From a virus (taxonomy: Duplodnaviria; Heunggongvirae; Uroviricota; Caudoviricetes), in IMG/VR virus record IMGVR_UViG_2778261247_000008: 21,832 bases of DNA. The stretch is one strand, 5' to 3'. The notes under the pieces are model-generated. The model did not search any database and had not been told where the DNA came from. It worked only from the letters and a program-made list of their open reading frames with translations. The position numbers and the translations under genes were made by a program. This document shows positions 1,465 through 17,165 of the stretch, one piece after another; position 1 is the first letter of the stretch, and every line of letters begins with the position of its first letter.

Positions 1465-1529
1465 CGTAGCCTGCCGGATCGCCGGAAAGGACCCGCAAAG
1501 GTGAGAATAATTATCACTTGCATTAATAT

Positions 1530-1706
1530 CCAGCTTCTTCCACCATCGCACCGGACGGGCGACTATGAGGGACAAAACCGCGCACCATAAACGCGGTAAA
1601 AACCCGGTGTGCATCGTTTTTGATTATTTCCGCACACTCGCGCAGAAGGAATTCCCCGTCGGGCTACGGTCATGGTTAATGCGGAAATACGGCGACGATG
1701 CAGCGC
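1530..1706. repeat. direct repeat copy A (~175 bp, ~90% identical to copy B)
   Basis: Aligns with 2481..2656 from ...TTCTTCCACC..ATGAGGGACAAA.. through CGCGGTAAAAACCCGGTGTGCATCGTTTTTGATTATTTCCGCACACTCGCGCAGA.GGA.TTCCCCGTCGGGCTACGGTCATGGTTAATGCGGAAATACGGCGACGATGCAGCGC. Contains the internal inverted repeat ATTTCCGCA/TGCGGAAAT. Confidence 0.8.
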
Positions 1707-2423: not shown

Positions 2424-2445
2424 CAAAACCTCCTGACAAAGATAC

Positions 2446-2465
2446 CGTGCGACCACGGTCGCACG
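2446..2465. other. sopC-like palindrome (candidate partition centromere / SopB-ParB binding site)
   Basis: CGTGCGACC-AC-GGTCGCACG, perfect 9-bp arms with 2-bp spacer. Core TGCGACCACGGTCGCA differs from the F-plasmid sopC repeat TGGGACCACGGTCCCA (as recalled) at one symmetric position. Confidence 0.55.
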
Positions 2466-2480
2466 CTCCTGAATACATGC

Positions 2481-2656
2481 CCTGTTTCTTCCACCCTCGC
2501 ACAGGACTGGCGAGCATGAGGGACAAACCCGCGAATCATTAGCGCGGTAAAAACCCGGTGTGCATCGTTTTTGATTATTTCCGCACACTCGCGCAGAGGA
2601 GTTCCCCGTCGGGCTACGGTCATGGTTAATGCGGAAATACGGCGACGATGCAGCGC
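2481..2656. repeat. direct repeat copy B (~175 bp)
   Basis: See copy A. Copy B is bracketed by the sopC-like palindromes at 2446..2465 and 2666..2685. Confidence 0.8.
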
Positions 2657-2665
2657 GGTATTTAA

Positions 2666-2685
2666 TGTGCGACCACGGTCGCACA
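2666..2685. other. sopC-like palindrome (candidate partition centromere site)
   Basis: TGTGCGACC-AC-GGTCGCACA, perfect 9-bp arms. Confidence 0.55.
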
Positions 2686-2703
2686 CGAGAAACAAAGAGA
2701 TTT

Positions 2704-3015
2704 TTATGCTACAGAGGAACAAGCTGGCGGGTAATTCAGCGTAGTGAATACCGGCATCTCCATCTTGTATGCGTAATGATACTCAGCAGTTGCTCCAGCA
2801 GACGCTTTCCAGCCAGGAAGCATCAAAATAGCATCAGCACAACGAAGCATTGCAAAGCAAATATCCATGTATTCACGTTGTGTCAGACCATTAGGCAAAG
2901 TGGCTGGATTCAAGACAGAGTGACCATGTCGTGACAAACGATCTGCCTCTTTATTAAAGGCGTCACGATTAAAGTTCTCATATCCAGTCATTGGCCCGGC
3001 AATATAAATTTTCAT
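2704..3015 (-). CDS. DUF4406-like protein (nucleoside 2-deoxyribosyltransferase-like fold)
   Basis: 103-aa ORF MKIYIAGPMTGYENFNRDAFNKEADRLSRHGHSVLNPATL...AILMLPGWKASAGATAEY..MPVF, matching the recalled DUF4406 pattern (MKIY.AGP.TG ... V.NP ... LPGW..S.GA). Confidence 0.6.
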   Translation of the reverse strand: MKIYIAGPMTGYENFNRDAFNKEADRLSRHGHSVLNPATLPNGLTQREYMDICFAMLRCADAILMLPGWKASAGATAEYHYAYKMEMPVFTTLNYPPACSSVA

Positions 3016-3056
3016 TCACTATCCAACAAATTGAGTTCGTTTTTGATACAGAGGGA

Positions 3057-3524
3057 TTAATTCGGGCATTGCGTCTTGATGTATTCCTGAAGCGTTCTCA
3101 GTGCTGTCTGGTCTCTGATGATTCCGTCCCGGATACCGAGAACGTTTCGTCCAGCAACTGGAGAGAGTTCGACGGTGGCATCATTGCCCATGCCGGAGGC
3201 GCTGGAGGTTTCGGCTGAGGATGGCACAGAGCATTTTCCTTTGACGAGCACCCGACCACCATTATCAAGCTTGCGCCGAAGAGCATCATTTTCAGCTTTC
3301 GCATCAGCCAACTCCTTCGTGTATTTTGCATCGAGCGCAGCAACATCACGCTGACGCTGCTGCATGTCAGCGATGGTGGCGGTCGCCTGCTTCAGCTCAC
3401 TGACTTTTTTATCACGCTGTTCTTTGTAGGCGATGGCGTTATCACGGTAATGATTAACAGCCCACGACAGGCAGACGATGATGCAGATAACCAGTGCGGA
3501 GATAATTGCGGTTACTCTGCTCAT
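3057..3524 (-). CDS. Rz: i-spanin Rz
   Basis: From internal ATG: [37 protein letters not shown]..., near-identical to the lambda Rz N-terminus as recalled. N-terminal TM anchor; ATGA overlap with the endolysin stop. Confidence 0.85.
3098..3304 (-). CDS. Rz1: o-spanin Rz1 (lipoprotein embedded in Rz, +1 frame)
   Basis: [21 protein letters not shown]... with lipobox (VVGC) and proline-rich stretch [16 protein letters not shown]. Start taken at the Met matching lambda Rz1 MLKLKMML; track ORF 3098..3349 includes an upstream extension. Confidence 0.7.
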
Positions 3525-4021
3525 TGCTGCCCCCACAAACAGACTTCACGCTCAATCTCACGGCGAGTCATCAGCCCTTTCCATTGCTTACCGCCAGCAT
3601 ATGTCCAGCGACGTAGTTGATCACATGCACCTTTGATATCGCCCTGGTTGATTTTGCGAAGAAGTGTCGATGTTCTGAAATTGCCTGCACCCACGTTGTA
3701 AACGAACGAGTAAAGAGCACCACGCGTTGTTTCCGGTATATCGACTTTGATGTACGGGTTAATTTGTCTGGCGACAGTAGCAAGGTCTTTATTCAGGAGA
3801 GCTTTGCATTCTGCTTCGGTATACGTTTTACCGAGCATAATGTCTTTTCCTGTATGCCCGTAACATACAGTCCATACACCAACGATGTCTTTGTAGGGGT
3901 TATGTCTCACACCTTCCAGACCATCGTTGCCGCTCGGACCAGAGATGAGCACAGATGCTATGGCAATAGCCCCGCCACCAATAGCAGTTGCGACAGCTTT
4001 GCGTAATGATGACTGCATCAT
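3521..4021 (-). CDS. R: SAR endolysin (phage 21 R-type lysozyme)
   Basis: 166 aa with N-terminal signal-anchor-release segment ([20 protein letters not shown]) followed by a lysozyme domain; near-identical to phage 21 R as recalled. Confidence 0.88.
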
Positions 4022-4290
4022 ATTTCCTTCGGTGCTCTCTTTCCCAATTCACCAATAACCATCGCCGTGGCGGAAATATTATTGGCATCAGTTTTATCCA
4101 ATATGTCCTGCAATATCTTCGTGCGCTTCATCTGCTCGCGTTTATTGAGCCGGTATGTAAGTACACCGAGGATAATGCTGAACGCGACACCGATAATGAA
4201 GCCCCAATCCTGCAATGACAGGCTGGCAAAGAACGCAGTAAGACCAGCACTACCATAAGATGCGCTGCTGTATCGTTCATCCATCTTCAT
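4018..4290 (-). CDS. S: holin, pinholin (S21-like) with MKM dual-start motif
   Basis: 90 aa, MKMDER..., weakly hydrophobic TMD1 ([16 protein letters not shown]) plus TMD2 ([18 protein letters not shown]), similar to phage 21 S68 as recalled. GAGGT RBS; ATGA overlap with the endolysin start. Confidence 0.7.
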
Positions 4291-4385
4291 ATCTCTTACC
4301 TCGCAATAGTTGCTGAGGTTTCGGCTTGGAAACTATACGGCGAGAAATAACCCCATCAAAAACGGCAGGGGAATATATTCTTCAG

Positions 4386-5507
4386 TTACTCAAATAACTT
4401 TTTCACTTCATCAACTGTCTGAAGATAACGTTCACCCTCAATCTCAATACCGATTGCCTGACGACCTAACTTCAGCGCGGCTTTAATAGTAGAGCCTGAT
4501 CCCATAAAGAAATCGGCAACGATATCTCCGGGGCGGGAACTACTTTTTATAATATGTTCCATCATCGCTGCAGGTTTTTCACATGGGTGCTTGCCAGGAT
4601 AATATTGCACAGGAGGAAACTCCCATACATCGGTATAAGGTACATCAGCAGTAACATGAAATGGGCGGCGCAAATTTTCATACTGAGCCTTCAAATCATC
4701 ATACTGCTTCTTTACTTCCTCATAACGCAATTTCAGATCGCTATAACGCTTTTCATGTTCTGAATAATCAACATTAAAAGGATATGGACACGGGACACCG
4801 AGTGAATCTGCCTTCCTGCGAAATAATTCGCATAGTTTATTAAAATCACTTAATGATGGAAGCCGCCACTGCGAATAAGAAAACCAGTGCGAACACATCT
4901 GCTTTCCTGTTGCTGAATTAATGTCTGCGGCTGATATATCTAACTGACGGCGAGCCAGCGAAAAAGCATCAATTAGTGGAGAAAAAATATTTTTTCTTAA
5001 ATCTGCACATTTTGAAGCATAACCTGACTGACCTTTAGCATAACCTGACGCGCCGTAATGCTCTGCAAATAATATTCTTTCAGTGGCAGGAAAATAAGCC
5101 CTTAAACTTTCTTTATGACAACCGCGCCACATACCACTGGGTTTAGCCCAAATGATATGGTTCAGAACATTGAAACGGTCGCGAGTTAATAATTCAATTT
5201 TTGACGCAAGGCGAGAGCCGGTAAACATATACAGGCTGCCATTAGGGGCCAATATCCGCCAAAATTCTGCCAAAAATTCATCAATCCACCCCAAAAAGTC
5301 AGCATCGCTATCCCACTGGTTATCCCATGCGTTAGCCTTTACGCCGAAGTATGGTGGGTCTGTTGCAATCAAATTGACCGAGTTATCAGGGATGGTTTTG
5401 ATAAATTGCAGAGAATCTGCGCAAACGAGTTGCGCGCCATGAATATTAGTGGTTTTGAACATAGCTATTATTTTTTTGCCTGGGTAAGCTAACCCGGCGA
5501 TGCGCAT
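4386..5507 (-). CDS. orphan DNA methyltransferase (beta-class N6-adenine/N4-cytosine, DPPY motif)
   Basis: Motif IV ATDPPYF near the N-terminus, AdoMet motif I DFFMGSGST near the C-terminus, coiled-coil middle. No adjacent restriction endonuclease gene. True start may be the internal ATG at 5460..5462 (MFKTTNIHG...). Confidence 0.85.
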   Translation of the reverse strand: MRIAGLAYPGKKIIAMFKTTNIHGAQLVCADSLQFIKTIPDNSVNLIATDPPYFGVKANAWDNQWDSDADFLGWIDEFLAEFWRILAPNGSLYMFTGSRLASKIELLTRDRFNVLNHIIWAKPSGMWRGCHKESLRAYFPATERILFAEHYGASGYAKGQSGYASKCADLRKNIFSPLIDAFSLARRQLDISAADINSATGKQMCSHWFSYSQWRLPSLSDFNKLCELFRRKADSLGVPCPYPFNVDYSEHEKRYSDLKLRYEEVKKQYDDLKAQYENLRRPFHVTADVPYTDVWEFPPVQYYPGKHPCEKPAAMMEHIIKSSSRPGDIVADFFMGSGSTIKAALKLGRQAIGIEIEGERYLQTVDEVKKLFE

Positions 5508-5554
5508 CGCGGGTGGGCTTTAGGTTCAGCCTATAGCTCTGGCATGGGTTGACC

Positions 5555-5580
5555 GCAGGACAAGCTGCAACTTGTCCTGC
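5555..5580. promoter_or_regulatory. perfect 10-bp stem / 6-nt loop hairpin in the methylase leader
   Basis: GCAGGACAAG-CTGCAA-CTTGTCCTGC, about 50-75 nt upstream of the methylase start. Confidence 0.4.
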
Positions 5581-5597
5581 GCCCACTTTTCAGGCAC

Positions 5598-5620
5598 AAA
5601 AAAACCGCCATAAAGGCGGC
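5598..5620 (-). terminator. intrinsic terminator candidate (tR'-like) upstream of the methylase-lysis operon
   Basis: Minus strand: GCCGCC-TTTAT-GGCGG followed by TTTTTTT. Confidence 0.45.
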
Positions 5621-5658
5621 TTGTTGGCTGTTGGGTACAAAAAACCCAACTTAACAAA

Positions 5659-5687
5659 ACAATAACTAAAAACCGTAATTTTGCCAA
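5659..5687 (-). promoter_or_regulatory. candidate sigma70 promoter (possible late promoter)
   Basis: Minus strand TTGGCA-17 nt-TATTGT, followed by hairpin GTTGGGT..ACCCAAC and the terminator above; layout resembles lambdoid pR'-tR'. Confidence 0.3.
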
Positions 5688-5704
5688 GCTTTTTCGTTTT
5701 TGTG

Positions 5705-5726
5705 CTGTGCGACCACGGTCGCACAG
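5705..5726. other. sopC-like palindrome (candidate centromere site), immediately upstream of the candidate late promoter
   Basis: CTGTGCGACC-AC-GGTCGCACAG, 10-bp perfect arms. Confidence 0.55.
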
Positions 5727-5729
5727 TTT

Positions 5730-5957
5730 TTAGAAAGTTGCCTGCTTATATTCATCGGTCAAAGAATATCGACCAGACCCGCTACGCTTTGCAACCCCAA
5801 AACAGATCATCTGTTCGATGATAAATTCAACGGCAGCTTGACTCAAAAAACAGGCTTCGCTTAACTCTTTCAGGGAAATGCGTGGGTATCCACGCATAAC
5901 ACATTCCACACTCAGGGCCGCTTCAGTCATATTTCCACGAATTTCATTAATATTCAT
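5730..5957 (-). CDS. hypothetical protein (75 aa)
   Basis: ORF MNINEIRGNMTEAALSVECVMRGYPRISLKELSEACFLSQAAVEFIIEQ...; codirectional with the late block. Confidence 0.4.
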   Translation of the reverse strand: MNINEIRGNMTEAALSVECVMRGYPRISLKELSEACFLSQAAVEFIIEQMICFGVAKRSGSGRYSLTDEYKQATF

Positions 5958-5970
5958 AACGCCTCTCTAA

Positions 5971-6210
5971 TCAATCTTGAAACTGGAAATCAACATCAGC
6001 CATAAAGCGGTTCAACTCAGCCAGTTTTGGCCCCATAGTCCCAACTAAGCGACCAGCCAGTCGGTCTGCCAGGTTGGTACTGTTGAAACCATATTCCTTT
6101 TCGAAACGTTCAACCTTCTGCCACAACTCATACAGTTCGTTAGCTATCTCCGCAACGTCGTCGCGCATTTTTTCGTTACCTTGATAATTCATAATATCCT
6201 CCAAATTCAT
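5971..6210 (-). CDS. hypothetical protein (79 aa)
   Basis: ORF MNLEDIMNYQGNEKMRDDVAEIANELYELWQKVERFEKEYGF... Confidence 0.4.
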   Translation of the reverse strand: MNLEDIMNYQGNEKMRDDVAEIANELYELWQKVERFEKEYGFNSTNLADRLAGRLVGTMGPKLAELNRFMADVDFQFQD

Positions 6211-6281
6211 ATAGTTAGTGGGTTATTGCCCCTCAATGACACGAACTGTAACTCTGCCAAACGAACACATCCAGTGTTATT

Positions 6282-6299
6282 TTTCACTTTTTAGTGAAA
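6282..6299. promoter_or_regulatory. inverted repeat, candidate operator in the divergent promoter region upstream of the toxin-antitoxin pair
   Basis: TTTCACT-TTTT-AGTGAAA about 60 bp upstream of the toxin start. Confidence 0.3.
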
Positions 6300-6357
6300 T
6301 TTTTAATTTGCGCTTTTTTCTTGTTTTGGTGTATTTTATGGCTATGGAGGCTATAAT

Positions 6358-6669
6358 ATGTTTAACGTGATAACCCACCCTGCAGCACTGGATGAACTGC
6401 TTGAACTACCAGATGATTTGCGAGGTCGCATGACCAGATTAATTGAGCGACTGGAGAAGGAAGGCAACAAACTGAAGATGCCCCATAGCCGTGTAATAGG
6501 TGGAGGGCTTTTTGAACTACGAGTAGGGGATAAAAACATCGCAAGAACGCTGTACGCCTACGCGACTGGTAACGAAATTTATCTATTGCATGCATTTGTA
6601 AAAAAGACACAGAAAACACCGGTGAAGGCTATCGAAATCGCCAGAACTCGCCTGAAGGAGATGAACTGA
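6358..6669 (+). CDS. higB: type II toxin, RelE/HigB superfamily (Gp49-like)
   Basis: 103 aa; GGAGG RBS; toxin-first order with a 1-nt overlap (TGATG) to a downstream XRE-HTH gene. Sequence MFNVITHPAALDELLELPDDLRGRMTRLIERLEKEGNKL... fits the Gp49/HigB-like family as recalled. Confidence 0.7.
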   Translation: MFNVITHPAALDELLELPDDLRGRMTRLIERLEKEGNKLKMPHSRVIGGGLFELRVGDKNIARTLYAYATGNEIYLLHAFVKKTQKTPVKAIEIARTRLKEMN

Positions 6670-6956
6670 TGAAAGCGAAAGGCATCCCGTTTAACGAAGT
6701 AAAAGAAAAACTTCTCAACACTCCAGAAGCCATCAAAGGATATGAAGAGGCCGATAAAGAGCTGGAGATGGTCGAAATGTTATACGAAATGAGGGAAAGA
6801 GCAGGTTTAACGAAATCAGCTCTGGCTGAACGAATGGGGTTGCGACCGTCAGCCATCAGCCGCCTGGAAAGCAATCCTTTAGGGGCAAGTATGAAAACTT
6901 TGGCTAAATATGCTCATGCCTGCGGCGCAACCATCGATATTCGCGCTGTTTATTAA
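6669..6956 (+). CDS. higA: type II antitoxin, XRE-family HTH (HigA-like)
   Basis: 95 aa with HTH (GLTKSALAERMGLRPSAISRLE); translationally coupled to the upstream toxin. Confidence 0.7.
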   Translation: MKAKGIPFNEVKEKLLNTPEAIKGYEEADKELEMVEMLYEMRERAGLTKSALAERMGLRPSAISRLESNPLGASMKTLAKYAHACGATIDIRAVY

Positions 6957-6998
6957 TTAGACTCTTTTACTACCCCGTCCAGAAGGGCGGGGTGTGCA

Positions 6999-7202
6999 TC
7001 AATGATGTGAACGCTCAACAGCGATAGTTTTCTGACAATGCTGGGCAATCTCTCGCGACATGTTGATGAGTCGTGAAACCTCACCAATATGTAGGCTGGC
7101 TTCTGGAGAAGCCAGGGTGACGCTAACCAGATCCAGAACGGCGTCAATATCTCTCAAATTTGAATCGAGTTGTTCAAGAGTTGATACGGCTGCTTCAGAC
7201 AT
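6999..7202 (-). CDS. small hypothetical protein (67 aa) preceded by a LexA box; candidate SOS-induced effector such as an antirepressor
   Basis: ORF MSEAAVSTLEQLDSNLRDIDAVLDLVSVTLASPEASLHIGEVSRLINMSREIAQ.... Consensus LexA box about 40 bp upstream; GC hairpin 6973..6992 just downstream. Confidence 0.4.
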   Translation of the reverse strand: MSEAAVSTLEQLDSNLRDIDAVLDLVSVTLASPEASLHIGEVSRLINMSREIAQHCQKTIAVERSHH

Positions 7203-7238
7203 TAAATCTCATACCATTTAACTAAAAAAGGTTTTTTA

Positions 7239-7258
7239 TACTGTATAAAATTACAGGA
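7239..7258. promoter_or_regulatory. LexA (SOS) box
   Basis: TACTGTATAAAATTACAGGA has the exact CTGT-N8-ACAG core with an AT-rich spacer; lies in the intergenic gap between two minus-strand genes. Confidence 0.6.
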
Positions 7259-7284
7259 TAAAACTCAAACTTTACGGTCAATTT

Positions 7285-7527
7285 TCAATGAATTAACTGC
7301 GTAAACTGCTGTGTGACCCGATACTTATGCTCTCTCCCTATGCCACGATCAACTTTCTCAAGAAGTCCAGTACGGACAGCAGAATCAAGCATCCTTTTAA
7401 CAATTCTGCTATTTAACCCAACATCAAAAGCAAGCATCGAAGCGAAAACAAACCCATCACCACCATCAGAAAAGCTCTTTTCGCTCCGTTTTCGTATCAT
7501 TTCAAAAAGCAATGCCTTTTTATCCAT
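7285..7527 (-). CDS. hypothetical protein (80 aa)
   Basis: ORF MDKKALLFEMIRKRSEKSFSDGGDGFVFASMLAFDVGLNSRIVKRMLDSAVRTGLLEKV... Confidence 0.35.
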   Translation of the reverse strand: MDKKALLFEMIRKRSEKSFSDGGDGFVFASMLAFDVGLNSRIVKRMLDSAVRTGLLEKVDRGIGREHKYRVTQQFTQLIH

Positions 7528-7545
7528 TTATCCCTCCGTGACCAG

Positions 7546-7872
7546 TCACACTTTGAGCGCAAGTTTCAGCCTCGTGGTTGTAAGGTGGCATGACCCTTCG
7601 CCATCAAAAATGCATTCTGAAACAGGCATTTTTTGACCACATCGCGGGCAAGTAGTAGATAGCTGCTTCTGCAGCTCCTTATAGTTTTTCCTGATCAGCA
7701 AACCAATGACTTCGTTCTCCGAATATGGAACTCGCCCTGGTCTACGCAATACACAAATTTCCCCCAACATACGTAACTCGTCAGGTTCTAGAATCCAGTC
7801 CCGTCTTGATGTGCCTTCCTTCTTCAACCGTTCCCTGCGTCTCCTTTGCCGTTCTGCCGGTGTCAGCGCCAT
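7546..7872 (-). CDS. hypothetical protein with arginine-rich N-terminus and C-terminal zinc-ribbon-like cysteines (108 aa)
   Basis: MALTPAERQRRRRERLKKEG... and ...CPRCGQKMPVSECIFDGEGSCH. Confidence 0.4.
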   Translation of the reverse strand: MALTPAERQRRRRERLKKEGTSRRDWILEPDELRMLGEICVLRRPGRVPYSENEVIGLLIRKNYKELQKQLSTTCPRCGQKMPVSECIFDGEGSCHLTTTRLKLALKV

Positions 7873-7887
7873 AAATCCTCCTGAAAA

Positions 7888-8547
7888 TTACTTAACCCAA
7901 CTAACTACACCGCCAGCGGCCACAACCGCCCTTTCACAATCACGCTCATATCTCAAAGGTTGAAATACACCATCAATAAAATATTTATCTCCACCAAACG
8001 CTGCAGGAAGTGAAACAGAAAACTGAACATGACCATCCGGAGTTACCGGAGAGTTGCCAGCCTCATACGCGACCCTTATCCAGTGCATAAACATTTCAGT
8101 ACTTACACATCCACAATCAACATCAATTTTGTCATGCTGCTGTTCCAGCCATTGCTCAAAAGTTAACTTGTAAGTTTGGCTTACAGGTTTGGCTTCCAGT
8201 TCTGCTACGCGCTGTTTTGCAGCATCCAGTTCAATCGACAATTTTTCCAACTGCTCTTTATGCTTCTTGTATTCCTGATATGCGTGCCAGGACTGACCTT
8301 TGCGCACACTATCAGTAATATCAGTAATCTGTTCTGGTGTTAGCGTGGTCAGTGGCTGTGCTGGGAAAATCAGCACTTTCCCGGAATCCCAATCAAAACC
8401 AGCGTGAATTGACTGAACCTCAACTGAGGGTGTTGAACCAATGCTGCCAGGCGAATGAATAACGATTGTTACATCCATATCGCGACGATGGCTGTGGTTG
8501 TTGGACAAAATACGATTCACCAACTCAGAAAATTTGGAAAATTTCAT
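7888..8547 (-). CDS. hypothetical protein (219 aa)
   Basis: Long ORF codirectional with flanking genes; 4-nt overlap with the downstream ORF start. Confidence 0.5.
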   Translation of the reverse strand: MKFSKFSELVNRILSNNHSHRRDMDVTIVIHSPGSIGSTPSVEVQSIHAGFDWDSGKVLIFPAQPLTTLTPEQITDITDSVRKGQSWHAYQEYKKHKEQLEKLSIELDAAKQRVAELEAKPVSQTYKLTFEQWLEQQHDKIDVDCGCVSTEMFMHWIRVAYEAGNSPVTPDGHVQFSVSLPAAFGGDKYFIDGVFQPLRYERDCERAVVAAGGVVSWVK

Positions 8548-8834
8548 GCTGATTCCCCTTTATCTGCTCTCTCCTGTCGGAACATCACTATCATCAGGTC
8601 GCCTTTTGTCGCTATCTTGGCTGTTGTGCCTGGCTCAATGCGGCTAAGTTCAAATGCGTCATAGAACGCCTCTAACACTTTCTGGCGTCTTTCCTGTTTG
8701 CGGTGCTTTCCCCACTGCTTTAGAAAAACAGAGGCCGCCCACTTCCCCGCACTGAACATGATGTAAAACCAACCGAGAAGTGCCAGACCGATATTTAGGG
8801 CCGTATCGATCGTTATCGTGGTGTCGATATTCAC
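8544..8834 (-). CDS. hypothetical membrane protein (96 aa)
   Basis: One predicted TM segment (ALNIGLALLGWFYIMF); coupled overlaps with neighbours. Confidence 0.45.
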   Translation of the reverse strand: MNIDTTITIDTALNIGLALLGWFYIMFSAGKWAASVFLKQWGKHRKQERRQKVLEAFYDAFELSRIEPGTTAKIATKGDLMIVMFRQERADKGESA

Positions 8835-9253
8835 TACGCCACCTCCTGTAAATTTCCCTGATAAAAAGCCAGCACACGCTGCATAACTTCACTTTTCCGG
8901 CAATCGTGACAAATCATGTTCAAGCGCCTGTCGTAACGACGTATTTCTCCGTCAGGTAATGACCAGATAAGGTCTGGATCAACCACTACCGATGTCTTCG
9001 GCTTTACTCTTGATAGTTTTTTACGGGCGTTTTGCCAGTCCTTGCGTGCTTGTGCAGACAGAAATATCCCGGAGCCAGAGATATACAAATCACCACTGGC
9101 AGCAAGCTCTCTTGATAAACGACTAACAGCACACCGGCTAATACCAGTTTCATCCGCAAGTTGCCTAACCGTTCCTCGTCCATTCAGGCGCACGAGTTCC
9201 ACAATTTGTTTATTCAGTTCTTCCCTCTGTTCTGGTGTAAAAGCCTTTGCCAT
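8834..9253 (-). CDS. hypothetical DNA-binding protein (139 aa, HTH-like segment)
   Basis: GTVRQLADETGISRCAVSRLSRELA resembles a helix-turn-helix; C-terminal CHDC pair. Confidence 0.45.
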   Translation of the reverse strand: MAKAFTPEQREELNKQIVELVRLNGRGTVRQLADETGISRCAVSRLSRELAASGDLYISGSGIFLSAQARKDWQNARKKLSRVKPKTSVVVDPDLIWSLPDGEIRRYDRRLNMICHDCRKSEVMQRVLAFYQGNLQEVA

Positions 9254-9852
9254 TACGATTCTCCTTGCCCTTTTACAAGACGGGAGAAAATTGCGGATAC
9301 ATACTTAGCCTGATGAATAGCATCAGCCAGGGCATTGTGTCGTTCACCATCAAATGGCATATCTTTTTTAGGATTGAAACCAATAAACTGACCAAGATTA
9401 ACGATTGTTCGAACATCCTGATCATTAAAATATTCCCACGGACAGGCTAAGCCAACGCGCTCATAAGCACCGCGTAAAATTACATTGTCGAATGTTGCTC
9501 CATTTCCCCATACTTTCAATTTTTTTAAATTACATGCATGGCAAGTAATAAAGTGTGATAATTCAAAAAGTGCATCCTTAATATTAAGGGCATCATTAGT
9601 ACAAATTGCGGCTCTGGCTTCCTTGCTCTGTTTCAACCACCATAAAATGGTATCACCATCGGCGACACCACCATTCAACATCGAGCTTCTGAGATTCACT
9701 GGCACATAAAAAGTAGGACCTAATTCCTCACCTTCTGGAGAAAAAAACACTGCCCCGATAGAAACAATTGGAGCACATGTGTTAGTACCCATTGTTTCAA
9801 GGTCAATCATTACATCAGACCGTTTCCTGTCGTAAATAATCTGATTAGTCAC
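9253..9852 (-). CDS. 3'-5' exonuclease, DEDDh (DnaQ-like) family
   Basis: Exo I-like motif MIDLETMG and Exo III-like motif H-NALADAIH in a 199-aa protein. Confidence 0.65.
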   Translation of the reverse strand: MTNQIIYDRKRSDVMIDLETMGTNTCAPIVSIGAVFFSPEGEELGPTFYVPVNLRSSMLNGGVADGDTILWWLKQSKEARAAICTNDALNIKDALFELSHFITCHACNLKKLKVWGNGATFDNVILRGAYERVGLACPWEYFNDQDVRTIVNLGQFIGFNPKKDMPFDGERHNALADAIHQAKYVSAIFSRLVKGQGES

Positions 9853-9875
9853 GAATAATTCTCCTCAACGTTTAT

Positions 9876-10079
9876 CTATACCCAAATTTTCTGTTGATAT
9901 GTTCTGGATGGTTTTGGTGTTCTTTCTGATTCAGGTAAATGAACATAAACGCAATATCCATCACCTAAAAAATCAGAACGAACAACCAGAACTTTCTTAC
10001 CACGCCGCCGATAAGTATCTGAAAGACGCTCTGCTTCATCATGCGTCATCGGCCCCTGCTTAAATGGCGTTATTTTCAT
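9876..10079 (-). CDS. hypothetical small protein (about 67 aa from internal ATG)
   Basis: Track ORF 9876..10103 begins at a GTG inside the palindrome at 10085..10102; likelier start is MKITPFKQGPMTHDEAERL.... Confidence 0.3.
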   Translation of the reverse strand: MKITPFKQGPMTHDEAERLSDTYRRRGKKVLVVRSDFLGDGYCVYVHLPESERTPKPSRTYQQKIWV

Positions 10080-10380
10080 TTTCTTGTGCGACCACGGTCG
10101 CACCCTCTCTGATTTCCAAGTAACGCTTAATCCAAAGATTTTCTATATGCTTATTACCTGGCTGATTTGATAAATACCAATCGGCAATTACAGACTGCTT
10201 ATTACTATCTGGTCGTGTCCTGTAACCACAAGTTGGACACCAGATAACATATTCATTTCTTACCCCCGAATACCTTAATTCCGGCTTCGACGGTTTCCTG
10301 AACATAACTTGTTTACAAAGGCAGAATGGCACTTCCTGCCCGATGGCGTTTGATGATTTCACTGCGCTTCTCCGCCGCAT
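10060..10380 (-). CDS. hypothetical Cys-containing small protein (zinc-ribbon-like), boundaries uncertain
   Basis: FCLC...(22)...CPTCG pattern; the C-terminal tail is read through the palindrome and may not be real. Confidence 0.3.
   Translation of the reverse strand: MRRRSAVKSSNAIGQEVPFCLCKQVMFRKPSKPELRYSGVRNEYVIWCPTCGYRTRPDSNKQSVIADWYLSNQPGNKHIENLWIKRYLEIREGATVVAQENENNAI
10085..10102. other. sopC-like palindrome (candidate centromere site)
   Basis: GTGCGACC-AC-GGTCGCAC, 8-bp perfect arms. Confidence 0.5.
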
Positions 10381-11023
10381 TTAATAATGCAGTTCGATTT
10401 AAGCTCAGACATCGCGACTTAATTAAAAGCCAGCGTTCTTTATAATCTTGTCTCCAGCTATCAATAGATATATTCAGTAGAAAACTCAGCTGCCTGTCCT
10501 GTTCTCTATCATCAACTGCCTCAGCACACGTAAGTTCTGACTTAACCTGCTGTGCCGCGTAATAAATCAATTTTCTCATGGCTTTTTTCGTGGAGGCCTT
10601 CATTTTTTTAAACCCGCCACCCGAATGCGCAACCAGAAAATCAAGCCATAACCACTGACAAACAATCACATCATTGTTGTAGTTAGGCTTGCATCCGTAG
10701 CAATAATAAAGCCAGGCTGATTCCTCGTTATTCAACTGACCAATAGCCCTGCGCCAGCTGGCGCTCTGAAAATCAATATCAGTGAGCAACATTGATGATT
10801 GTTTAAATGTTTTGCCCTGGTGGAATCTAACCGGCTCAGCAGGAACAGACACTTCGTATGAGTTATCATCACCTACACTGATTGACCGGACTGGTTTATT
10901 GTTAAAGCGTCCTGATCTGCCTAGACGCATCTGCTCAAGCTGGACCTCTAGGATGCCACGCTGGCGATAATGAATATCAGCCAATGCCGTGGAGACGCAG
11001 CTGCGTATATACTCAAGCTCCAC
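10313..11023 (-). CDS. hypothetical protein (236 aa) immediately downstream of cro; possible Q-like late regulator by position only
   Basis: In N15-type phages the gene after cro is, as I recall, the late antiterminator. Contains CYGC; no family match could be confirmed from sequence. Confidence 0.35.
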   Translation of the reverse strand: MELEYIRSCVSTALADIHYRQRGILEVQLEQMRLGRSGRFNNKPVRSISVGDDNSYEVSVPAEPVRFHQGKTFKQSSMLLTDIDFQSASWRRAIGQLNNEESAWLYYCYGCKPNYNNDVIVCQWLWLDFLVAHSGGGFKKMKASTKKAMRKLIYYAAQQVKSELTCAEAVDDREQDRQLSFLLNISIDSWRQDYKERWLLIKSRCLSLNRTALLNAAEKRSEIIKRHRAGSAILPL

Positions 11024-11234
11024 GCTTACGGCTCTCCTTAATCGACTGCTTTACCCGCCGAGTTGTAAAGTCACTCTTCAGCTTGTAAGCAGTACGAACT
11101 TCAATATCACTTTGCCGCAATGAAGGAATCTCTCCAGCGGTTAACCATTGGTAAACAGCACCGGGTGTTACACCTACCCCAGCCGCTGCTTTTTCTACAC
11201 TGCCAAAGTGGCGAATAAGTTCTTCTGGTTTCAT
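11013..11234 (-). CDS. cro: Cro-like HTH regulator
   Basis: HTH AAGVGVTPGAVYQWL; divergent from the repressor gene across an operator-bearing region. Start taken at the internal Met (MKPEELIRHFG...); track ORF extends to 11261. Confidence 0.6.
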   Translation of the reverse strand: MKPEELIRHFGSVEKAAAGVGVTPGAVYQWLTAGEIPSLRQSDIEVRTAYKLKSDFTTRRVKQSIKESRKRGA

Positions 11235-11261
11235 GCGGTTATTATAAGCAATAAATCGCAT

Positions 11262-11303
11262 TTAAAGCCAGCTATAATAAATAAATTTTATAGCCAGCTA
11301 TAA
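11262..11303. promoter_or_regulatory. two 16-bp operator-like near-palindromes between cro and cB
   Basis: TTAAAGCCAGCTATAA (11262..11277) and TTATAGCCAGCTATAA (11288..11303), arms TTATAG/CTATAA. Confidence 0.5.
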
Positions 11304-11325
11304 GAAGATCATTTATGATTAAGCT

Positions 11326-11922
11326 ATGAAAACACGAGGCGAACGACTGAAAGCACGCCGTTTAGAGATGAAGCTGACGTTGCGAGAAGTTGCTGAGGCT
11401 GTCGATATCTCTATTGCAGGCGTCCAAAACTTAGAACGTGGCGACGTAATGCCGTCACTGGAGATAGGTATTGCCCTGGCTAAATGCTTACGCAAGCCAG
11501 TGCATTGGGTGCTGTATGGGACAGAATATGACCCTGATCGCATTCCTGTTATTGGCACAACTGAAAGTGGACCTGATGAAGAGTGGAAGCCAGGACAGGT
11601 TCCAAATACTGAGCGATTCCTGCCATTCATCAGCCAGCGCAATACTGTTTATGCGTTAACTATCAGCAATCTGGCGCAGGGAAACTATCAGCCAGGCGAT
11701 TTTCTCCTGGTCGATTCTGCGCTGGAACTGGTTCCCGGCGAGGATGTTCTGGTTCGTGATACTGCAGGAAATATCACCATCCAGCGCCTGGCCCGTTTTG
11801 ATGATGAAAATTACTATCTGGACGGAACAAATTCACAACGCGCCATCTTCAGGAAAAGCGATCTTGAATTTGTTCACCAAATAGTCGGAACGATCAAATC
11901 ATTCATGGTTGAGGGTAGATGA
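11326..11922 (+). CDS. cB: prophage repressor (CI/CB-like: N-terminal XRE HTH plus C-terminal LexA/CI-like dimerization domain)
   Basis: 198 aa; HTH LTLREVAEAVDISIAGVQNLERG; C-terminal segment aligns with the lambda CI C-terminal domain as recalled (PGDFLLVD...ITIQRLARF versus CI ...FTFKKLIRD). Confidence 0.75.
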   Translation: MKTRGERLKARRLEMKLTLREVAEAVDISIAGVQNLERGDVMPSLEIGIALAKCLRKPVHWVLYGTEYDPDRIPVIGTTESGPDEEWKPGQVPNTERFLPFISQRNTVYALTISNLAQGNYQPGDFLLVDSALELVPGEDVLVRDTAGNITIQRLARFDDENYYLDGTNSQRAIFRKSDLEFVHQIVGTIKSFMVEGR

Positions 11923-12167
11923 CTTAATACGGGGTTTATTGTTTGCTGTAAATCTGGTTTAATGCAGAGCATATGTTCTGTGGGTTGACTCAGGTTACAG
12001 CAGCAGAAAAAAGACGAAAAAAAACCCGAGTCGGCAAACTCGGGTCCTTTTCAGGAAGCAGCCACAGTAACGCGACGGATTCCGTCAATTCAAGATGCGT
12101 TTATTGTGGCTGCTCCTGCGGATTTTTTCAACCCGAAAAAACATAATTCGCATGGAATGGCTAAAAA

Positions 12168-15100
12168 ATGACATTAAACGATTTCTATGCGGATCGCTTT
12201 GGCAGCGATCCGTTCTCGCTAATTGAAGCAGCACGGGATGAACTAACCGAGCTGGCACAGATGGCTGGTATCAACTGGTCTGCCTGTTCCGACAACATCC
12301 AACTCAACCCTCGCGGGGGTGTTGAGCGTTACTCTTCATACAATAAAACATCTCCAGAAGCTCTCGAAAAGAGCCTCAAAGGACGCGTAGAAATTTACTC
12401 CCGGCTGGAACACAGCAAAGGGATTGATTACCCGTTCATTAACTTCGTCCATAAAGGCAGCGATGCTGGCTCATGGAGCGGTTTCTCCTTCCTGTTTTCT
12501 GAATATCGCCGTGAGCAACAACGGAATAATGCGACCGTGGTCGCACAACCGGAAGAAGAACGGGCAAGAATAGAACGTCAGGCCGAAGCACGTCGTCGCC
12601 GTGAAGAACAAAAACGAATTAATGACCTGAAAAACAACCAAATGGACCATGAACGTTTGCTGGGATGGCTGGCATTCCACAGCGCGTGGGAACATGCTCC
12701 TGCAGAAGACGGCTCATGGCCATATGCGATTAAAAAAGGTATTCGTGACGTTTTTAATTCGTGTGATGTGCGTCGCGTGACCAGTCACGACAGCGCAAAA
12801 TGGAGCAGGGGGCCAACCACGTATATGGCTATCCCTCTGGCTCACCTGGACGGTCGTTACGATGGTCGTATTGTGGGTTGGCAGCGAATCGACAAACAAG
12901 GTGGAAAATACCAGACCAGCGCCGTAACCAGCGGCGATTTCGTCGGTGCCTGCTTTGTTATCGGTGAGCTAAAAGGGGCGCAAAACATCGCTGTTACAGA
13001 AGGTTTTGCTACTGGTGCATCCATCTGGCTTGCCACGAAAAAAGATAAACGCTTTGACGCTGTGGTTGTCGCTGTATCCGCTAATAACATGGTTCATGTT
13101 GTGGAACAACTGGTAAACATGTACCCGGCGGCAAAAATCACCTGCGCACTGGATAATGACCGGAAATCAGCCACAGAAGGAAAAGGGAATACCGGCCTGC
13201 GGACTGGCTATGAAATCTTATCGAAATTCAACGATGTCCGCTGCGTCTATCCAACTTTTGAAGACGATCCGCAAATGGAGTGCAGTGACTTCAACGACCT
13301 GCACAAACTGCGTGGACTTCGTGAAACAGCACGTCAACTGTTTGCAACTGCAAACCGCCTGAAAACCGGCACTGATTTGCTATCTCTGACGCTCAACCGC
13401 CTGAAGACAATTAAGCGGGATAACCGTCGTACTTTTGCCAAAGAGCTGCTGAGAGCGGTGGATATTGGCATGCTAACCTGTCCGGTTCCTAACAGTCCGT
13501 CAGACTTATTTAACATGTTCTGCATCGTTCTGCGTGAAATGGGGCTGGAAAATATCTATCGCGCTACGGTAAAAGACCACATTGCCCGTCGCCTGAATAA
13601 AAAGTGCCGTATTGCCCAGGCTCCGCGCTCATTCAGCGAACGCATAACTGATCCCAATAAACGTCCTCAACATATCACCTATAAGCGTTTTGAAACTTCG
13701 GTAATGACCGATGACGTCCTGAAGTATGTGCAATCACTACAGGGGATAGTCATCGTTCGTGCTGGTATGGGTTCCGGCAAATCTACTGGATTGTTACGAC
13801 CTTTAATGCATAGCTCAGAACGTGGTATCTCTGTTGCTCACCGTGTTTCCCTTATTGGTGGCCTGTGGGAAATGATGACAGAAGGAAAAGGTGTAAAAGC
13901 CGATATCCTGCACTATCAGGACCCTGGCTATCAGGAAATGGCTCCATACGCCAGTAAACTGACCATCTGCATAAACTCGATTGTTAAAAACTGCTGGCAA
14001 CCGTTGATGCGCCAGCACGACTATTTTGGCTTTGACGAGGCCACGCAAGGGCTACGTGCCGTTCTTTCCGGTCGGGCTATGGAAAACCCGGTGGCTGTAT
14101 TCAATACGTTAATCGACGCGCTGGCCAGAACGGAACAACACCCAATAATGGTGGATGCTGATGCGAACGATCTGCTGGTTGACCTGGCTGAACTGGCTAT
14201 GAAACGCCGTGAAGAACTAGGTTTACCGGCATGGCTGCAGATCCACGTAATTGAATTACCTGTTGATGTTCGCAACCGCGAAACAGGTGAGCCAATCCGG
14301 GTTTTTTATACAGAAAAAGATCGCATTATGACCGAGGTGGTGAAAGCTGTATCGGATGGCGAAAAAATCATGTTGGCCACCGACAGCTCCACCTTTGCAG
14401 AAGATGTGACAGCCACCCTGAGAATGCATTTTCCTGGTAAGAAATTTCTGTGTGTAAACCAGAAAAACAAACCAGAGCCAGAAGTTGAAGCATTTACCAA
14501 TCAACCGAAAAAGATGGTCAAAAAATACGACGGCCTGATTTATAGCCCGTCTATTTCATCCGGTGTGTCGATTGAGCAAAAACATTTTGACCGTCATTTC
14601 GGCATGTTCTGTGGTGAAGTTGTACCCAGCGACGCAGTGCAAATGCTACGCCGCGACCGTACAGCAAAAGAATTTATTATCGGCTTTGATAAAGCTCGCG
14701 CAAAACGTGAAACTGACCCGCAAAAAATAGAACGAGCATTCGCCCAGGCATTGCTTGCTACCGCAGGCATGAACGGTGAACTGACGGATGTCGTTTTCGA
14801 TGGCGACCGTATATCAATGGGGGTGGCCAATACCGACTTTACCAGGATGAAAATTAAAGCAGCCGCAATTGAAGCGTCTGCGCGTAACGACTACGCCAGC
14901 AACATGATCTGCATCATGCACAGCGACGGTTATAAGGTATCGCCGCTGGCCACCGATTATGCTGCGAATGATATCGGTAAAGATCTGCGTAAAGAAGCGC
15001 GGGATATTGTGTGGGAACAGACACTGGATCTGCATCTCAATACAGAAACTCCACAAGAATCAGAGCGTGAAGAACTGCTAAAAAAACGCGCGCTGACGCT

Positions 15101-16163
15101 TGAAGAACAAGCAAAACTTGTCCGCTGGGATATTGAGAACGAACTGAAACTACCGGTTGAAGAAGGCACGCTGAAATTCTATTTCGATGGTGCTCGAGAC
15201 AAAGTTCGCCGCTATGAAACAATGCTTTTAGATGAGGTAACAGCTCGTCGTTACGACCGGGAAGAAGCAGCCATCAATTTTACCTACGCATACCGTCAGG
15301 CGGGACAGTGGCAATATTTTGTAGTGACCGCGATGACTCGCGAGCAGGCTGATGATGTCTTTAAAACTAAATTCCCTGGAATAATCGACTACAAGGTAAA
15401 AGCTACTCCTACTGTTGAAGTCGGGGCGCGCGGTTTCTATGCGCTTAAATCAGCAACTCTCCGGCAGTACTTTATCGACTGCGGTATCAACCCTGAGACT
15501 ATGACCGGCGAGGCGACTCAGGAGCGTCTCAAATTCGCTCGAGATAACCTCATGACAGCCGAACGCCGTGACCTGTTGAATAACGTTCTGCACATTGGTG
15601 GTTTTATGACGCCAAAAGGGAAGCCTAAAGTGCCGGAAGCGTTGTTTAAAAACATTTGCGACTCTCTTGGCCTTAAAACAGGTAAACGTCGCGGCAGAGA
15701 CGGCGATAAGCGTCCAACCTTGCGTTTTGTTGAGCCTGAATCAGCGGCATTTATGCTGGATATTCTTGTTCAGCGTCAGAAAGATGGCCTAACCCTAAAA
15801 ACGCGTAAAGCCGAGAAGACAGCCATCGAAATGGATCGCGATTTGGATCTCAATATATATATGGATGATAAAACGCGATCCACAAACGAGCAGGTTCAAA
15901 ACGCCCCTCATTCAGTAATTTCTGAGGCTTTGGCCGTATTGCCGGTGGCTGTTCCTGAGTCCTGGGCGATGAGTGCGCTTTCCGGTGAGGAGCTGGCCAC
16001 TATGTCATCATGGTCATCAGCCAGCATAGCTATGACGTTTGCATCTCTGTATCTCACAGAGTTCATGGATCACTTGTCCAGCAATGAATTGCGGCGGTTA
16101 CGAGAATACATTACCGGGAATAGCTCATGCAGCTACGAAGAGCAGGGCGCTTTCTATGGGTAA
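12168..16163 (+). CDS. repA: replication protein RepA, multidomain primase-helicase (N15 RepA-like)
   Basis: Single 1331-aa ORF with Walker A VRAGMGSGKSTGLL in the central region; size and position next to cB match N15 RepA (about 1324 aa, as recalled). Confidence 0.85.
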   Translation: MTLNDFYADRFGSDPFSLIEAARDELTELAQMAGINWSACSDNIQLNPRGGVERYSSYNKTSPEALEKSLKGRVEIYSRLEHSKGIDYPFINFVHKGSDAGSWSGFSFLFSEYRREQQRNNATVVAQPEEERARIERQAEARRRREEQKRINDLKNNQMDHERLLGWLAFHSAWEHAPAEDGSWPYAIKKGIRDVFNSCDVRRVTSHDSAKWSRGPTTYMAIPLAHLDGRYDGRIVGWQRIDKQGGKYQTSAVTSGDFVGACFVIGELKGAQNIAVTEGFATGASIWLATKKDKRFDAVVVAVSANNMVHVVEQLVNMYPAAKITCALDNDRKSATEGKGNTGLRTGYEILSKFNDVRCVYPTFEDDPQMECSDFNDLHKLRGLRETARQLFATANRLKTGTDLLSLTLNRLKTIKRDNRRTFAKELLRAVDIGMLTCPVPNSPSDLFNMFCIVLREMGLENIYRATVKDHIARRLNKKCRIAQAPRSFSERITDPNKRPQHITYKRFETSVMTDDVLKYVQSLQGIVIVRAGMGSGKSTGLLRPLMHSSERGISVAHRVSLIGGLWEMMTEGKGVKADILHYQDPGYQEMAPYASKLTICINSIVKNCWQPLMRQHDYFGFDEATQGLRAVLSGRAMENPVAVFNTLIDALARTEQHPIMVDADANDLLVDLAELAMKRREELGLPAWLQIHVIELPVDVRNRETGEPIRVFYTEKDRIMTEVVKAVSDGEKIMLATDSSTFAEDVTATLRMHFPGKKFLCVNQKNKPEPEVEAFTNQPKKMVKKYDGLIYSPSISSGVSIEQKHFDRHFGMFCGEVVPSDAVQMLRRDRTAKEFIIGFDKARAKRETDPQKIERAFAQALLATAGMNGELTDVVFDGDRISMGVANTDFTRMKIKAAAIEASARNDYASNMICIMHSDGYKVSPLATDYAANDIGKDLRKEARDIVWEQTLDLHLNTETPQESEREELLKKRALTLEEQAKLVRWDIENELKLPVEEGTLKFYFDGARDKVRRYETMLLDEVTARRYDREEAAINFTYAYRQAGQWQYFVVTAMTREQADDVFKTKFPGIIDYKVKATPTVEVGARGFYALKSATLRQYFIDCGINPETMTGEATQERLKFARDNLMTAERRDLLNNVLHIGGFMTPKGKPKVPEALFKNICDSLGLKTGKRRGRDGDKRPTLRFVEPESAAFMLDILVQRQKDGLTLKTRKAEKTAIEMDRDLDLNIYMDDKTRSTNEQVQNAPHSVISEALAVLPVAVPESWAMSALSGEELATMSSWSSASIAMTFASLYLTEFMDHLSSNELRRLREYITGNSSCSYEEQGAFYG
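12530..12545. other. sopC-like palindrome inside repA, opposite orientation (spacer GT)
   Basis: TGCGACC-GT-GGTCGCA, 7-bp arms; on the coding strand all five sites read GCGACCGUGGUCGC in the mRNA sense. Confidence 0.45.
15833..15881. other. candidate replication origin element inside the 3' part of repA
   Basis: GGATCGCG ... CGCGATCC inverted repeat flanking an AT-rich core (ATTTGGATCTCAATATATATATGGATGATAAAA) with GATC sites; N15 ori is reported inside the 3' region of repA (recalled). Confidence 0.3.
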
Positions 16164-17076: not shown

Positions 17077-17165
17077 ATAGTGATGACTGTTCAAGTTAAA
17101 CCGTTCTCGGCATATTTTATTTAATGGAATAATACATTATTAATCAAAGAGGTTAAGTTAATATT

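Follow-up and report, generated by a model that had tools for sequence, protein, structure and literature searches.

Five dispersed palindromes that are very probably SopB partition sites in an N15-like linear plasmid-prophage of E. coli

A 21,832-nucleotide stretch of tailed-phage DNA (all of it analyzed here and referred to as the window) carries five copies of a short palindrome at phage regulatory landmarks. A sequence-only reading had taken them for a dispersed partition centromere related to sopC of the F plasmid. Our analysis supports that reading in part: its core was right, but three side claims attached to it fail or need correction. We conclude that the five palindromes are very probably dispersed parS-type centromere sites of a SopABC system in an N15-like linear plasmid-prophage. 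This conclusion is carried by the identity to the N15 SopB sites, positional conservation, the SopB and SopA of relatives, and selection on the arms, all shown here. The idea of a dispersed centromere is already known and was established in N15 as early as 1999-2001; N15 SopABC and its dispersed centromere, IR1-IR4, are reportedly the subject of Ravin & Lane 1999, Grigoriev & Lobocka 2001, and Ravin, Rech & Lane 2008.

The window is a complete draft contig (NODY01000036.1, assembly GCA_002517525.1) that ends at a telomere, and its closest sequences in phage, plasmid, and E. coli collections are 98.8 to 99% identical to it. With TelK domains, terminal telomere sequence, and RepA all present (Table 1), the host element is an N15-like linear plasmid-prophage of E. 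coli. The hairpin that follows the late promoter-like site is a candidate Q antitermination target, and N15 and phiKO2 have an annotated stem-loop or terminator at the equivalent place. A Pfam search gave no match for the 198-aa ORF or for the ylcI-like ORF.

Table 1. Putative SopB sites and neighboring features, in positions of the window
Feature	Position	Strand	Remarks
IR1-type SopB site (putative)	12529..12546	.	repA codons 121-127, NATVVAQ; homologue of N15 33479, phiKO2 37905
IR2-type SopB site (putative)	10086..10103	.	210 bp 3' of Q; homologue of N15 IR2 35930, phiKO2 40345
IR3-type SopB site (putative)	5707..5724	.	22-bp palindrome 5705-5726; 19 bp 5' of late promoter -35
IR4-type SopB site (putative)	2667..2684	.	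directly 3' of DUF4406 gene; ~1.2 kb from cosN
Fifth site, named IR5 (putative SopB site)	2447..2464	.	24 bp 5' of ATG of ORF 1827-2423(-)
Protelomerase gene	19702..21603	-	TelK domains
Telomere/telRL half	~21768-21832		contig end, 3' of protelomerase; telomere matches
repA (primase/replicase, 1331 aa)	12168..16163	+	holds IR1; annotated in relatives as primase / CyRepA1 family
Q antiterminator gene	10313..11023	-	PF06323, E=4e-85
DUF4406 gene	2704..3015	-	precedes IR4; PF14359, E=3.7e-34
Late promoter-like site	5659..5687	-	TTGGCA, 17 nt, TATTGT; position shared with late promoters annotated in N15 and phiKO2
Intrinsic terminator-like hairpin	5602..5622	-	between late promoter and methylase gene
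cosN cohesive end GGGCGGAAGGCG (inferred)	1454..1465	-	aligned with a lambda-type cos; N15 ends compared
ylcI/ynfO-like copy A	1519..1706	+	next to cos; intact 58-aa ORF 1565-1741; without palindrome
ylcI/ynfO-like copy B, pseudogene	2470..2656	+	between IR5 and IR4; stop at codon 9

A motif scan of the window found GTGCGACCACGGTCGCAC exactly at IR5, IR4, IR3, and IR2, and the general form GTGCGACC-NN-GGTCGCAC returned the same four exact sites (starts 2447, 2667, 5707, and 10086). The copy in repA, ATGCGACCGTGGTCGCAC, reads aTGCGACC-GT-GGTCGCAC, with one outer mismatch and a perfect 16-bp palindrome at 12530-12545; the window has no further match to GTGCGACCACGGTCGCAC at up to 3 mismatches. 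Chance expectation, estimated from dinucleotide-preserving shuffles, was 0.00 for the 18-mer (up to 3 mismatches) and 0.03 for the 14-bp core (up to 1 mismatch), and the claim of five dispersed palindromes is thus confirmed. The coordinates first given for them mostly mark perfect palindromes slightly longer than the 18-mer (2446-2465, 2666-2685, and 5705-5726, the last of 22 bp), and the remainder were shifted by one base. The closest pair (2447/2667) is 220 bp apart, the others are separated by 2.4 to 4.4 kb, and the total spread is 10 kb. The description of three sites as clustered near cos and the late promoter was loose: cosN is ~1.0 to 1.2 kb from two of them but 4.2 kb from the third, which is at the late promoter. 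The site said to lie within repA is there, and the GTG-initiated ORFs that had been dismissed as artifacts of the palindromes (“MRPWSH”) were also found: ORFs 1827-2684(-) and 9876-10103(-) both begin at a palindrome GTG and read VRPWSH. Their true starts are likely ATG 2423, with AGGAGG upstream, and ATG 10079 or 10049, respectively. Across 185,579 species genomes scanned, the motif was, among the matches listed, almost always a singleton and in GC-rich DNA.

We compared the arms and flanks of these sites with those in N15, phiKO2, and a Citrobacter plasmid-prophage. The arms were identical at 16/16 positions for IR2 (flanks, 65 to 77% identical) and IR3 (flanks, 63 to 80%) and at 14 to 16 of 16 positions for IR1 (flanks, 75 to 78%); overall, eight of the nine comparisons gave 16/16 arms within flanks of 63 to 80% identity, and the center read GT, GA, GC, AT, or AC. 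The arms are therefore under purifying selection across diverged relatives, and the center is free. Fixed arms around a variable central dinucleotide are what a site bound by a dimer would be expected to show. This variability also limits the suggestion that all sites share one orientation relative to transcription, which holds in the window but is not a conserved feature. Read along transcription in relatives, the central dinucleotide is AC, GC, GT, AT, or TC at IR2, AC, GC, or AT at IR3, and GT or AC (9:9) at IR4, and the state of IR3 in the window occurs in 0 of 31 distinct relatives.

The 8-bp arms in the window are identical to those of the N15 IR1-IR4 oligonucleotides (PMC7205306), and the N15 genome contains exactly four GCGACC-NN-GGTCGC sites, which are the published IR1-4. 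The F sopC repeat had been given correctly as cTGGGACCACGGTCCCAc (the F region examined has 9 copies of the core pattern), and the single symmetric difference from it, TGGGACC in F and TGCGACC in the window, falls at one position per half-site. N15 and F sites are known to differ by one base per half-site, and exchanging helix-turn-helix residues 179-200 switches the specificity of SopB (PMC2910045). N15 SopB forms foci on 4xIR, built from the IR1-4 oligonucleotides, with SopB alone, whereas N15 IR sites are not bound by an N15/F hybrid SopB whose DNA-binding domain comes from F (PMC7205306), and F SopB is reported to be nonfunctional with N15 sites (earlier work cited in PMC7205306).

The window itself has no SopB gene, as had been noted, because the contig stops at the telomere. 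The proposal that sopAB lies beyond telRL agrees with the relatives, from which alone the cognate protein is known: sopA/sopB adjoin telR in PhiR46_1 and pPEC1013-3 (99% identical), and SopB (PF18090) and SopA are encoded across telRL in L134, a contig with an identical protelomerase. A genome-wide count in the complete relatives PhiR46_1 and pPEC1013-3 gave exactly five sites in each, every one on the arm covered by the window. The SopB proteins of relatives are 72 to 74% identical to N15 SopB and share its recognition helix ([IV]DRNI, compared with ISRKI in F), with a GSRRRK box in all, in line with the proposed change of specificity relative to F. In the resulting model, a SopB dimer of the ParB-family helix-turn-helix type, its gene beside sopA near telR on the opposite arm, would recognize the two GTGCGACC half-sites and nucleate partition complexes at the sites, and the SopA ATPase would position these complexes, with the outcome that both daughter cells inherit the low-copy linear prophage. 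Binding, stabilization, and regulatory effects in the window's own element are extrapolated here from experiments in N15.

The fifth site (2447) is missing from N15 and phiKO2 and present in all close E. coli relatives. It is a lineage-specific extra copy that arrived with a duplicated ylcI-like cassette near cos; the two ylcI/ynfO-like copies (1519-1706 and 2470-2656) form a direct repeat, and the family name YlcI/YnfO is the annotation of the copy B sequence in some E. coli chromosomes. The best BLAST matches include at least 29 lambdoid prophages in E. coli chromosomes that carry either the IR4-ylcI-like-IR5 cassette or single copies of it, and in at least 13 lambdoid loci, IR5 is the exact boundary of homology with lambdoid prophages. 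Because integrated lambdoid prophages with no need of a centromere carry one or both of the two leftmost sites, the presence of a site alone is no proof of centromere use. IR4 and IR5 could accordingly be passive passengers, or recombination junctions within the mosaic of lambdoid late genes, with partition served by IR1 to IR3 only, and mutated IR4 alleles in several elements, some of them N15-like, point the same way; the decay of IR4 in at least one N15-like contig (L082) indicates that not every site is indispensable. Yet the IR4 position still has an intact site in N15 and phiKO2 even though the flanks have diverged by ~25%, IR4 and IR5 are both perfect in every complete E. coli plasmid relative examined, and decay in chromosomes fits neutral drift without SopB, so we consider the passenger explanation unlikely. 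A firm contrast in decay between chromosomes and plasmids was dropped from the argument: three of eight chromosomal copies are mutated, but decayed IR4 alleles are also found in N15-like contigs, and the IMG/VR loci had been preselected for exact matches.

A main role for the palindromes in RNA, as hairpins or intrinsic terminators punctuating operons, with the likeness to SopB sites secondary, is much harder to sustain. The N15 record does annotate IR4 as a putative rho-independent terminator stem-loop, and copies of two motif families (X and Y) directly follow the major capsid gene, a place occupied in phiKO2 by an ordinary terminator hairpin. By our terminator scan (GC-rich hairpin, 3- to 8-nt loop, and T-run), however, only IR5 scored, and weakly, with a terminator-like hairpin on the - strand; IR2, IR3, and IR4 failed and lack the required T-run, and IR1 lies inside the repA coding sequence. 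A hairpin would allow covarying arms and needs a loop of more than 2 nt, whereas the 8-bp arms are identical at every site and in every lineage without compensatory changes and only the 2-bp center varies. Binding of N15 SopB to this sequence is, moreover, experimentally documented, and we regard the terminator explanation as very improbable. The idea that the post-capsid motif families belong to some non-Sop system is countered for at least some of their carriers, which are SopAB plasmid-prophages. Least credible of all, and scarcely to be expected, is that the sites are operators of a phage transcription regulator such as the CB repressor, Cro, or an antirepressor, as their placement ahead of the late promoter, behind Q, and in the early part of repA might suggest, because the N15 CB operators (34056-34094 and 34729-34793) overlap none of the four GCGACC-NN-GGTCGC sites, specificity follows the SopB helix-turn-helix in swap experiments (PMC2910045), and SopB alone gives foci on 4xIR (PMC7205306).

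By analogy with N15, Sop is probably also coupled to late transcription through the sites that follow Q and precede the late promoter. The effect would run against the one first suggested, that SopB spreading could silence late genes: a published N15 study is reported to have found the opposite, with Sop facilitating late gene expression. The silencing known from N15 was that of a weak promoter beside an artificial 4xIR array under induced SopB (PMC7205306).

The dispersed-centromere design of N15 is thus kept base for base in abundant E. coli N15-like phage-plasmids, and their SopB sites lend themselves to automated annotation from sequence. The count can depart from four, and sites move with late-gene modules into ordinary prophages. 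The interest of these points for phage-plasmid incompatibility and mosaic evolution is modest, and they open no new mechanism; the minor additions made here are the fifth site in a duplicated ylcI-like cassette, a different fifth site elsewhere, and copies in integrated lambdoid prophages. We speculate, with little confidence, that the SopB site is a small portable cis-element of which fifth copies were gained independently (cos-proximal in E. coli and post-capsid in Citrobacter) and leaked into lambdoid prophages. If so, lambdoid copies might be centromere decoys that cause incompatibility with incoming N15-like phage-plasmids or, alternatively, preferred recombination junctions, and the cos-proximal extra sites could extend the reported Sop-dependent coupling of Q and the late promoter to the packaging region.

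Among known systems, F sopC resembles the window in its 7-bp inverted repeat, 2-bp center, and protein family but consists of tandem 43-bp repeats directly 3' of sopB, whereas the window has solitary sites dispersed over 10 kb. No tandem 43-bp array of the F type was found in the window, and no F-type GGGACC-NN-GGTCCC in the window or its relatives. Chromosomal ParABS systems, such as that of Bacillus subtilis Spo0J, have scattered single palindromic parS sites, some of them inside genes. The window is similar in having several single palindromic ParB loading sites over a region, some intragenic, and SopB, as in those systems, is a ParB-family protein with an arginine-rich GxRRxK box; in contrast, the site sequence is different, SopB belongs to the plasmid type Ia subgroup, and the window sites lie at phage regulatory landmarks.

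The closest parallels are the N15-like elements. phiKO2 has the same 18-mer as the window, and its repA site ends in GCAT as does that of the window; each of its four homologous sites is labeled “putative plasmid partitioning site” in the phiKO2 record (NC_005857). The phiKO2 site at 45384, with the late -35 at 45421 (~19-bp spacing), repeats the layout of IR3, and the site at 48618, directly after gp58, is placed with respect to the DUF4406-family gene as IR4 is. Unlike the window, phiKO2 lacks a fifth site, and its head module is of the HK97 type; Citrobacter pRHBSTW-00524_3, with a phiKO2-type head, has its fifth site after the capsid gene instead. N15 has four sites rather than five, the extra one in the window lying 220 bp from IR4 across the ylcI-like pseudogene, and one methylase gene separates N15 IR4 (45561) from the DUF4406 gene; the late and structural genes of the window are lambda-type (Nu1/A), with another cos sequence, and the central dinucleotides differ. 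In N15, nevertheless, IR3 (41124) and the late -35 (41162) have the same layout as in the window, both elements are linear plasmid-prophages with a protelomerase, and, in a comparison that also took in a Citrobacter plasmid-prophage, four of the window sites match N15 and phiKO2 in position: one in repA, one behind Q, one ahead of the late promoter, and one close to the right end or cos.

The window contains four exact plus-strand copies of the 18-mer GTGCGACCACGGTCGCAC and one further copy reading ATGCGACCGTGGTCGCAC; named after the N15 sites, the variant copy is IR1, and the exact copies are IR2 to IR4 and the additional site, IR5. No further copies were found in the window when up to three mismatches were allowed, and 0.00 to 0.03 matches were expected by chance from dinucleotide-preserving shuffles. 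These copies and the shuffle expectation bear out the five palindromes of the sequence-only reading, whose coordinates mark slightly longer perfect palindromes or are shifted by one base. That reading also rightly regarded ORFs starting at palindrome GTGs as artefacts. Two mechanically called ORFs, 1827-2684(-) and 9876-10103(-), begin in this way (reading VRPWSH), and each has a better start: ATG 2423, with AGGAGG in front of it, for the first, and ATG 10079 or 10049 for the second. Near IR3, a terminator-like hairpin follows the promoter-like sequence.

Palindromic sites in the window, in N15, and downstream of major capsid genes
Site	Element	Position	Context
IR1	Window	12529-12546	Inside repA, codons 121-127 (NATVVAQ)
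IR2	Window	10086-10103	210 bp past Q
IR3	Window	5707-5724	19 bp upstream of promoter-like TTGGCA-17-TATTGT
IR4	Window	2667-2684	Directly past DUF4406 gene
IR5	Window	2447-2464	With IR4, brackets a 202-bp segment
N15 site	N15	33479	In repA
N15 site	N15	35930	After Q
N15 site	N15	41124	21 bp before annotated late-promoter -35
N15 site	N15	45561	After gene 58, close to right end
Capsid-downstream motif	L030	4071-4088
Capsid-downstream motif	L016	7220-7237
Capsid-downstream motif	L133	24288-24305

The window is 99% identical to Escherichia phage PhiR46_1 across 92% of its length, is collinear with E. coli plasmid pPEC1013-3 (98.8% identity), and shares blocks at 72 to 77% identity with N15 and Klebsiella telomere phages. 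Its genes encode a protelomerase, a large RepA primase/replicase, a CB-type repressor, Q, a late-region methylase, a DUF4406 protein, and a lambda-type Nu1. Exact protein matches identify it as the complete 21,832-bp contig NODY01000036.1 (assembly GCA_002517525.1), which has telomere sequence at its end, as one arm of a linear plasmid-prophage should.

Several structural features of this arm were also observed. An 826-bp deletion relative to PhiR46_1 at 1839-1845 takes out a 149-aa ORF and shortens a 286-aa ORF, with no assigned function, to 198 aa (1827-2423, -); the shorter form is common to YDC107_1 and pPEC1013-3. Nu1 and the cosB region are lambda-like, but the inferred cohesive-end sequence (1454-1465, -), GGGCGGAAGGCG, is neither that of lambda (GGGCGGCGACCT) nor that of N15 (GGGCGGCGTCCG). 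Homology to N15 and to the Klebsiella telomere phages at the DNA level starts at 10043-10047, about 40 bp beyond IR2, so that IR2 lies on a mosaic boundary, the margin of the conserved replication-immunity-Q module. The repA-protelomerase interval is a variable accessory/immunity region: the segments 17091-18001 and 18834-19641, which contain part of a Bro-N antirepressor-like gene and a 270-aa ORF for which no Pfam hit is recorded, are not shared with PhiR46_1, and 18001-18834 matches it at only 91%. In the public “phage” record YDC107_1 (L003, CP025712.1), which is without sopAB, the protelomerase-to-repA arm is present twice, inverted (34650-46701), in what looks like assembly read-through of the hairpin telomere.

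Motif counts and partition genes could be assessed genome-wide in the nearest complete relatives, PhiR46_1 and pPEC1013-3. Each has exactly five sites, all on the window-equivalent arm, and ParA/SopA and ParB/SopB genes that adjoin telR, across telRL from the protelomerase. The same location is occupied by SopA and SopB (PF18090, SoPB_HTH) genes in a 45.6-kb contig (L134) whose protelomerase is identical to that of the window. The SopBs of these three elements share 72 to 74% identity with N15 SopB and 49% with F SopB, match solved F SopB structures (E=6e-39), and contain the GSRRRK box. Their specificity segment, [IV]DRNI, is common to N15, phiKO2, and a Citrobacter plasmid-prophage, whereas that of F is ISRKI.

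We compared IR1 to IR3 of the window with those of N15, phiKO2, and the Citrobacter element (nine comparisons). The 150-bp flanks were 63 to 80% identical, whereas the 16 arm positions were identical (16/16) in eight of the nine comparisons and 14/16 in the other, with changes confined to the outermost bases. The central dinucleotide varied (GT, GA, GC, AT, or AC). This pattern of conserved arms around a variable centre fits a symmetric dimer binding site, not an RNA hairpin. In a background scan of 185,579 species (one genome each), the exact motif was almost always a singleton in GC-rich DNA (118 of 120 among the loci listed; median GC, 0.67), and the sole enterobacterial two-site locus among the matches listed was a 46-kb Pseudocitrobacter contig. 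The first 120 IMG/VR loci hold 157 sites, 112 of which have the surroundings that IR2, IR3, IR4, or IR5 has in N15-like phages.

A uniform orientation of the centres relative to transcription, also proposed from the sequence, proved peculiar to the window. Among relatives, the centre of IR2 is AC, GC, GT, AT, or TC, that of IR3 is AC, GC, or AT, and that of IR4 is GT or AC equally often; only at IR1, where the repA reading frame imposes a constraint, is the centre nearly fixed. At the IR3 centre (5715-5716), PhiR46_1, YDC107_1, and pPEC1013-3, with flanks ~99% identical to the window's, differ from the window by an exact 2-bp inversion (AC in the window versus GT), and the window's state was found in none of 31 distinct relatives. 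Inversion or template switching inside the palindrome may account for the flip.

The segment between IR4 and IR5 is a degenerate ylcI/ynfO-like copy (copy B, 2470-2656, +) with a stop at codon 9. It forms a ~190-bp direct repeat (87 to 98% identity) with copy A (1519-1706, +), which adjoins cos and is intact (58 aa). By itself, the element is found in 3,181 of the 5,426 E. coli genomes (~4,900 places), and a palindrome accompanies it at only a small minority of these places. Some N15-like contigs have a mutated IR4 allele with IR5 retained, which suggests that the two sites are redundant.

Among the top matches, at least 29 lambdoid prophages in E. coli chromosomes carried one or both of the IR4/IR5 palindromes, and IR5 is an exact homology boundary in many lambdoid loci, between the ylcI-like element and cos. 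In the six lambdoid prophages fetched, three of eight copies were mutated within flanks 91 to 97% identical, which is compatible with neutral drift. These integrated prophages (L007-L012; e.g., L012, 5002-5019) carry N15-type SopB palindromes without sopAB nearby, typically between the ylcI-like element and cos; the mutated forms are GCGGCC, GAGCGACCACGATCGCAC, and an outer GCAA variant. Independently of the window's fifth site, the exact motif recurs right behind the major capsid gene in phages whose heads are of the phiKO2 type, including the IMG/VR loci L030 and L016; its surroundings there fall into two context families. In one of these (family X), the arms reach 13 bp, and the allelic extensions ACGCT and ACTCT occur in all four left/right combinations. 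In Citrobacter pRHBSTW-00524_3, which encodes SopA, SopB, protelomerase, and RepA, the capsid-downstream motif is a fifth site besides IR1 to IR4; site number is thus not fixed at four in the N15-type family.

The N15 genome has exactly four GCGACC-NN-GGTCGC sites, which are the IR1 to IR4 sequences of Table 4 in PMC7205306. A 4xIR array supports focus formation by N15 SopB, and a weak promoter 50 bp from it is silenced when this SopB is induced (PMC7205306). Silencing of late genes by SopB spreading, as had been suggested for the window, is possible in principle, but the likely regulatory sign is the opposite, as Sop is reported in a separate N15 study to promote late gene expression. An N15/F hybrid SopB whose DNA-binding domain comes from F fails to bind the 4xIR array, and F SopB is non-functional with N15 sites, according to earlier work cited there (PMC7205306). 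N15 and F centromere sites differ by one nucleotide per half-site, and swapping helix-turn-helix residues 179-200 changes SopB specificity between the two (PMC2910045); we confirmed the F repeat as cTGGGACCACGGTCCCAc. In the phiKO2 RefSeq record, four annotated “putative plasmid partitioning sites” coincide exactly with the window 18-mer at the same four landmarks. The system is already known, and variable site number, centre flipping, and sites in integrated prophages are only mildly novel. Together with the N15 sites and the SopB and SopA of relatives, the phiKO2 annotation upholds the reading of a scattered partition centromere: the window palindromes are very probably the well-studied N15-type dispersed Sop centromere, with a lineage-specific fifth site.
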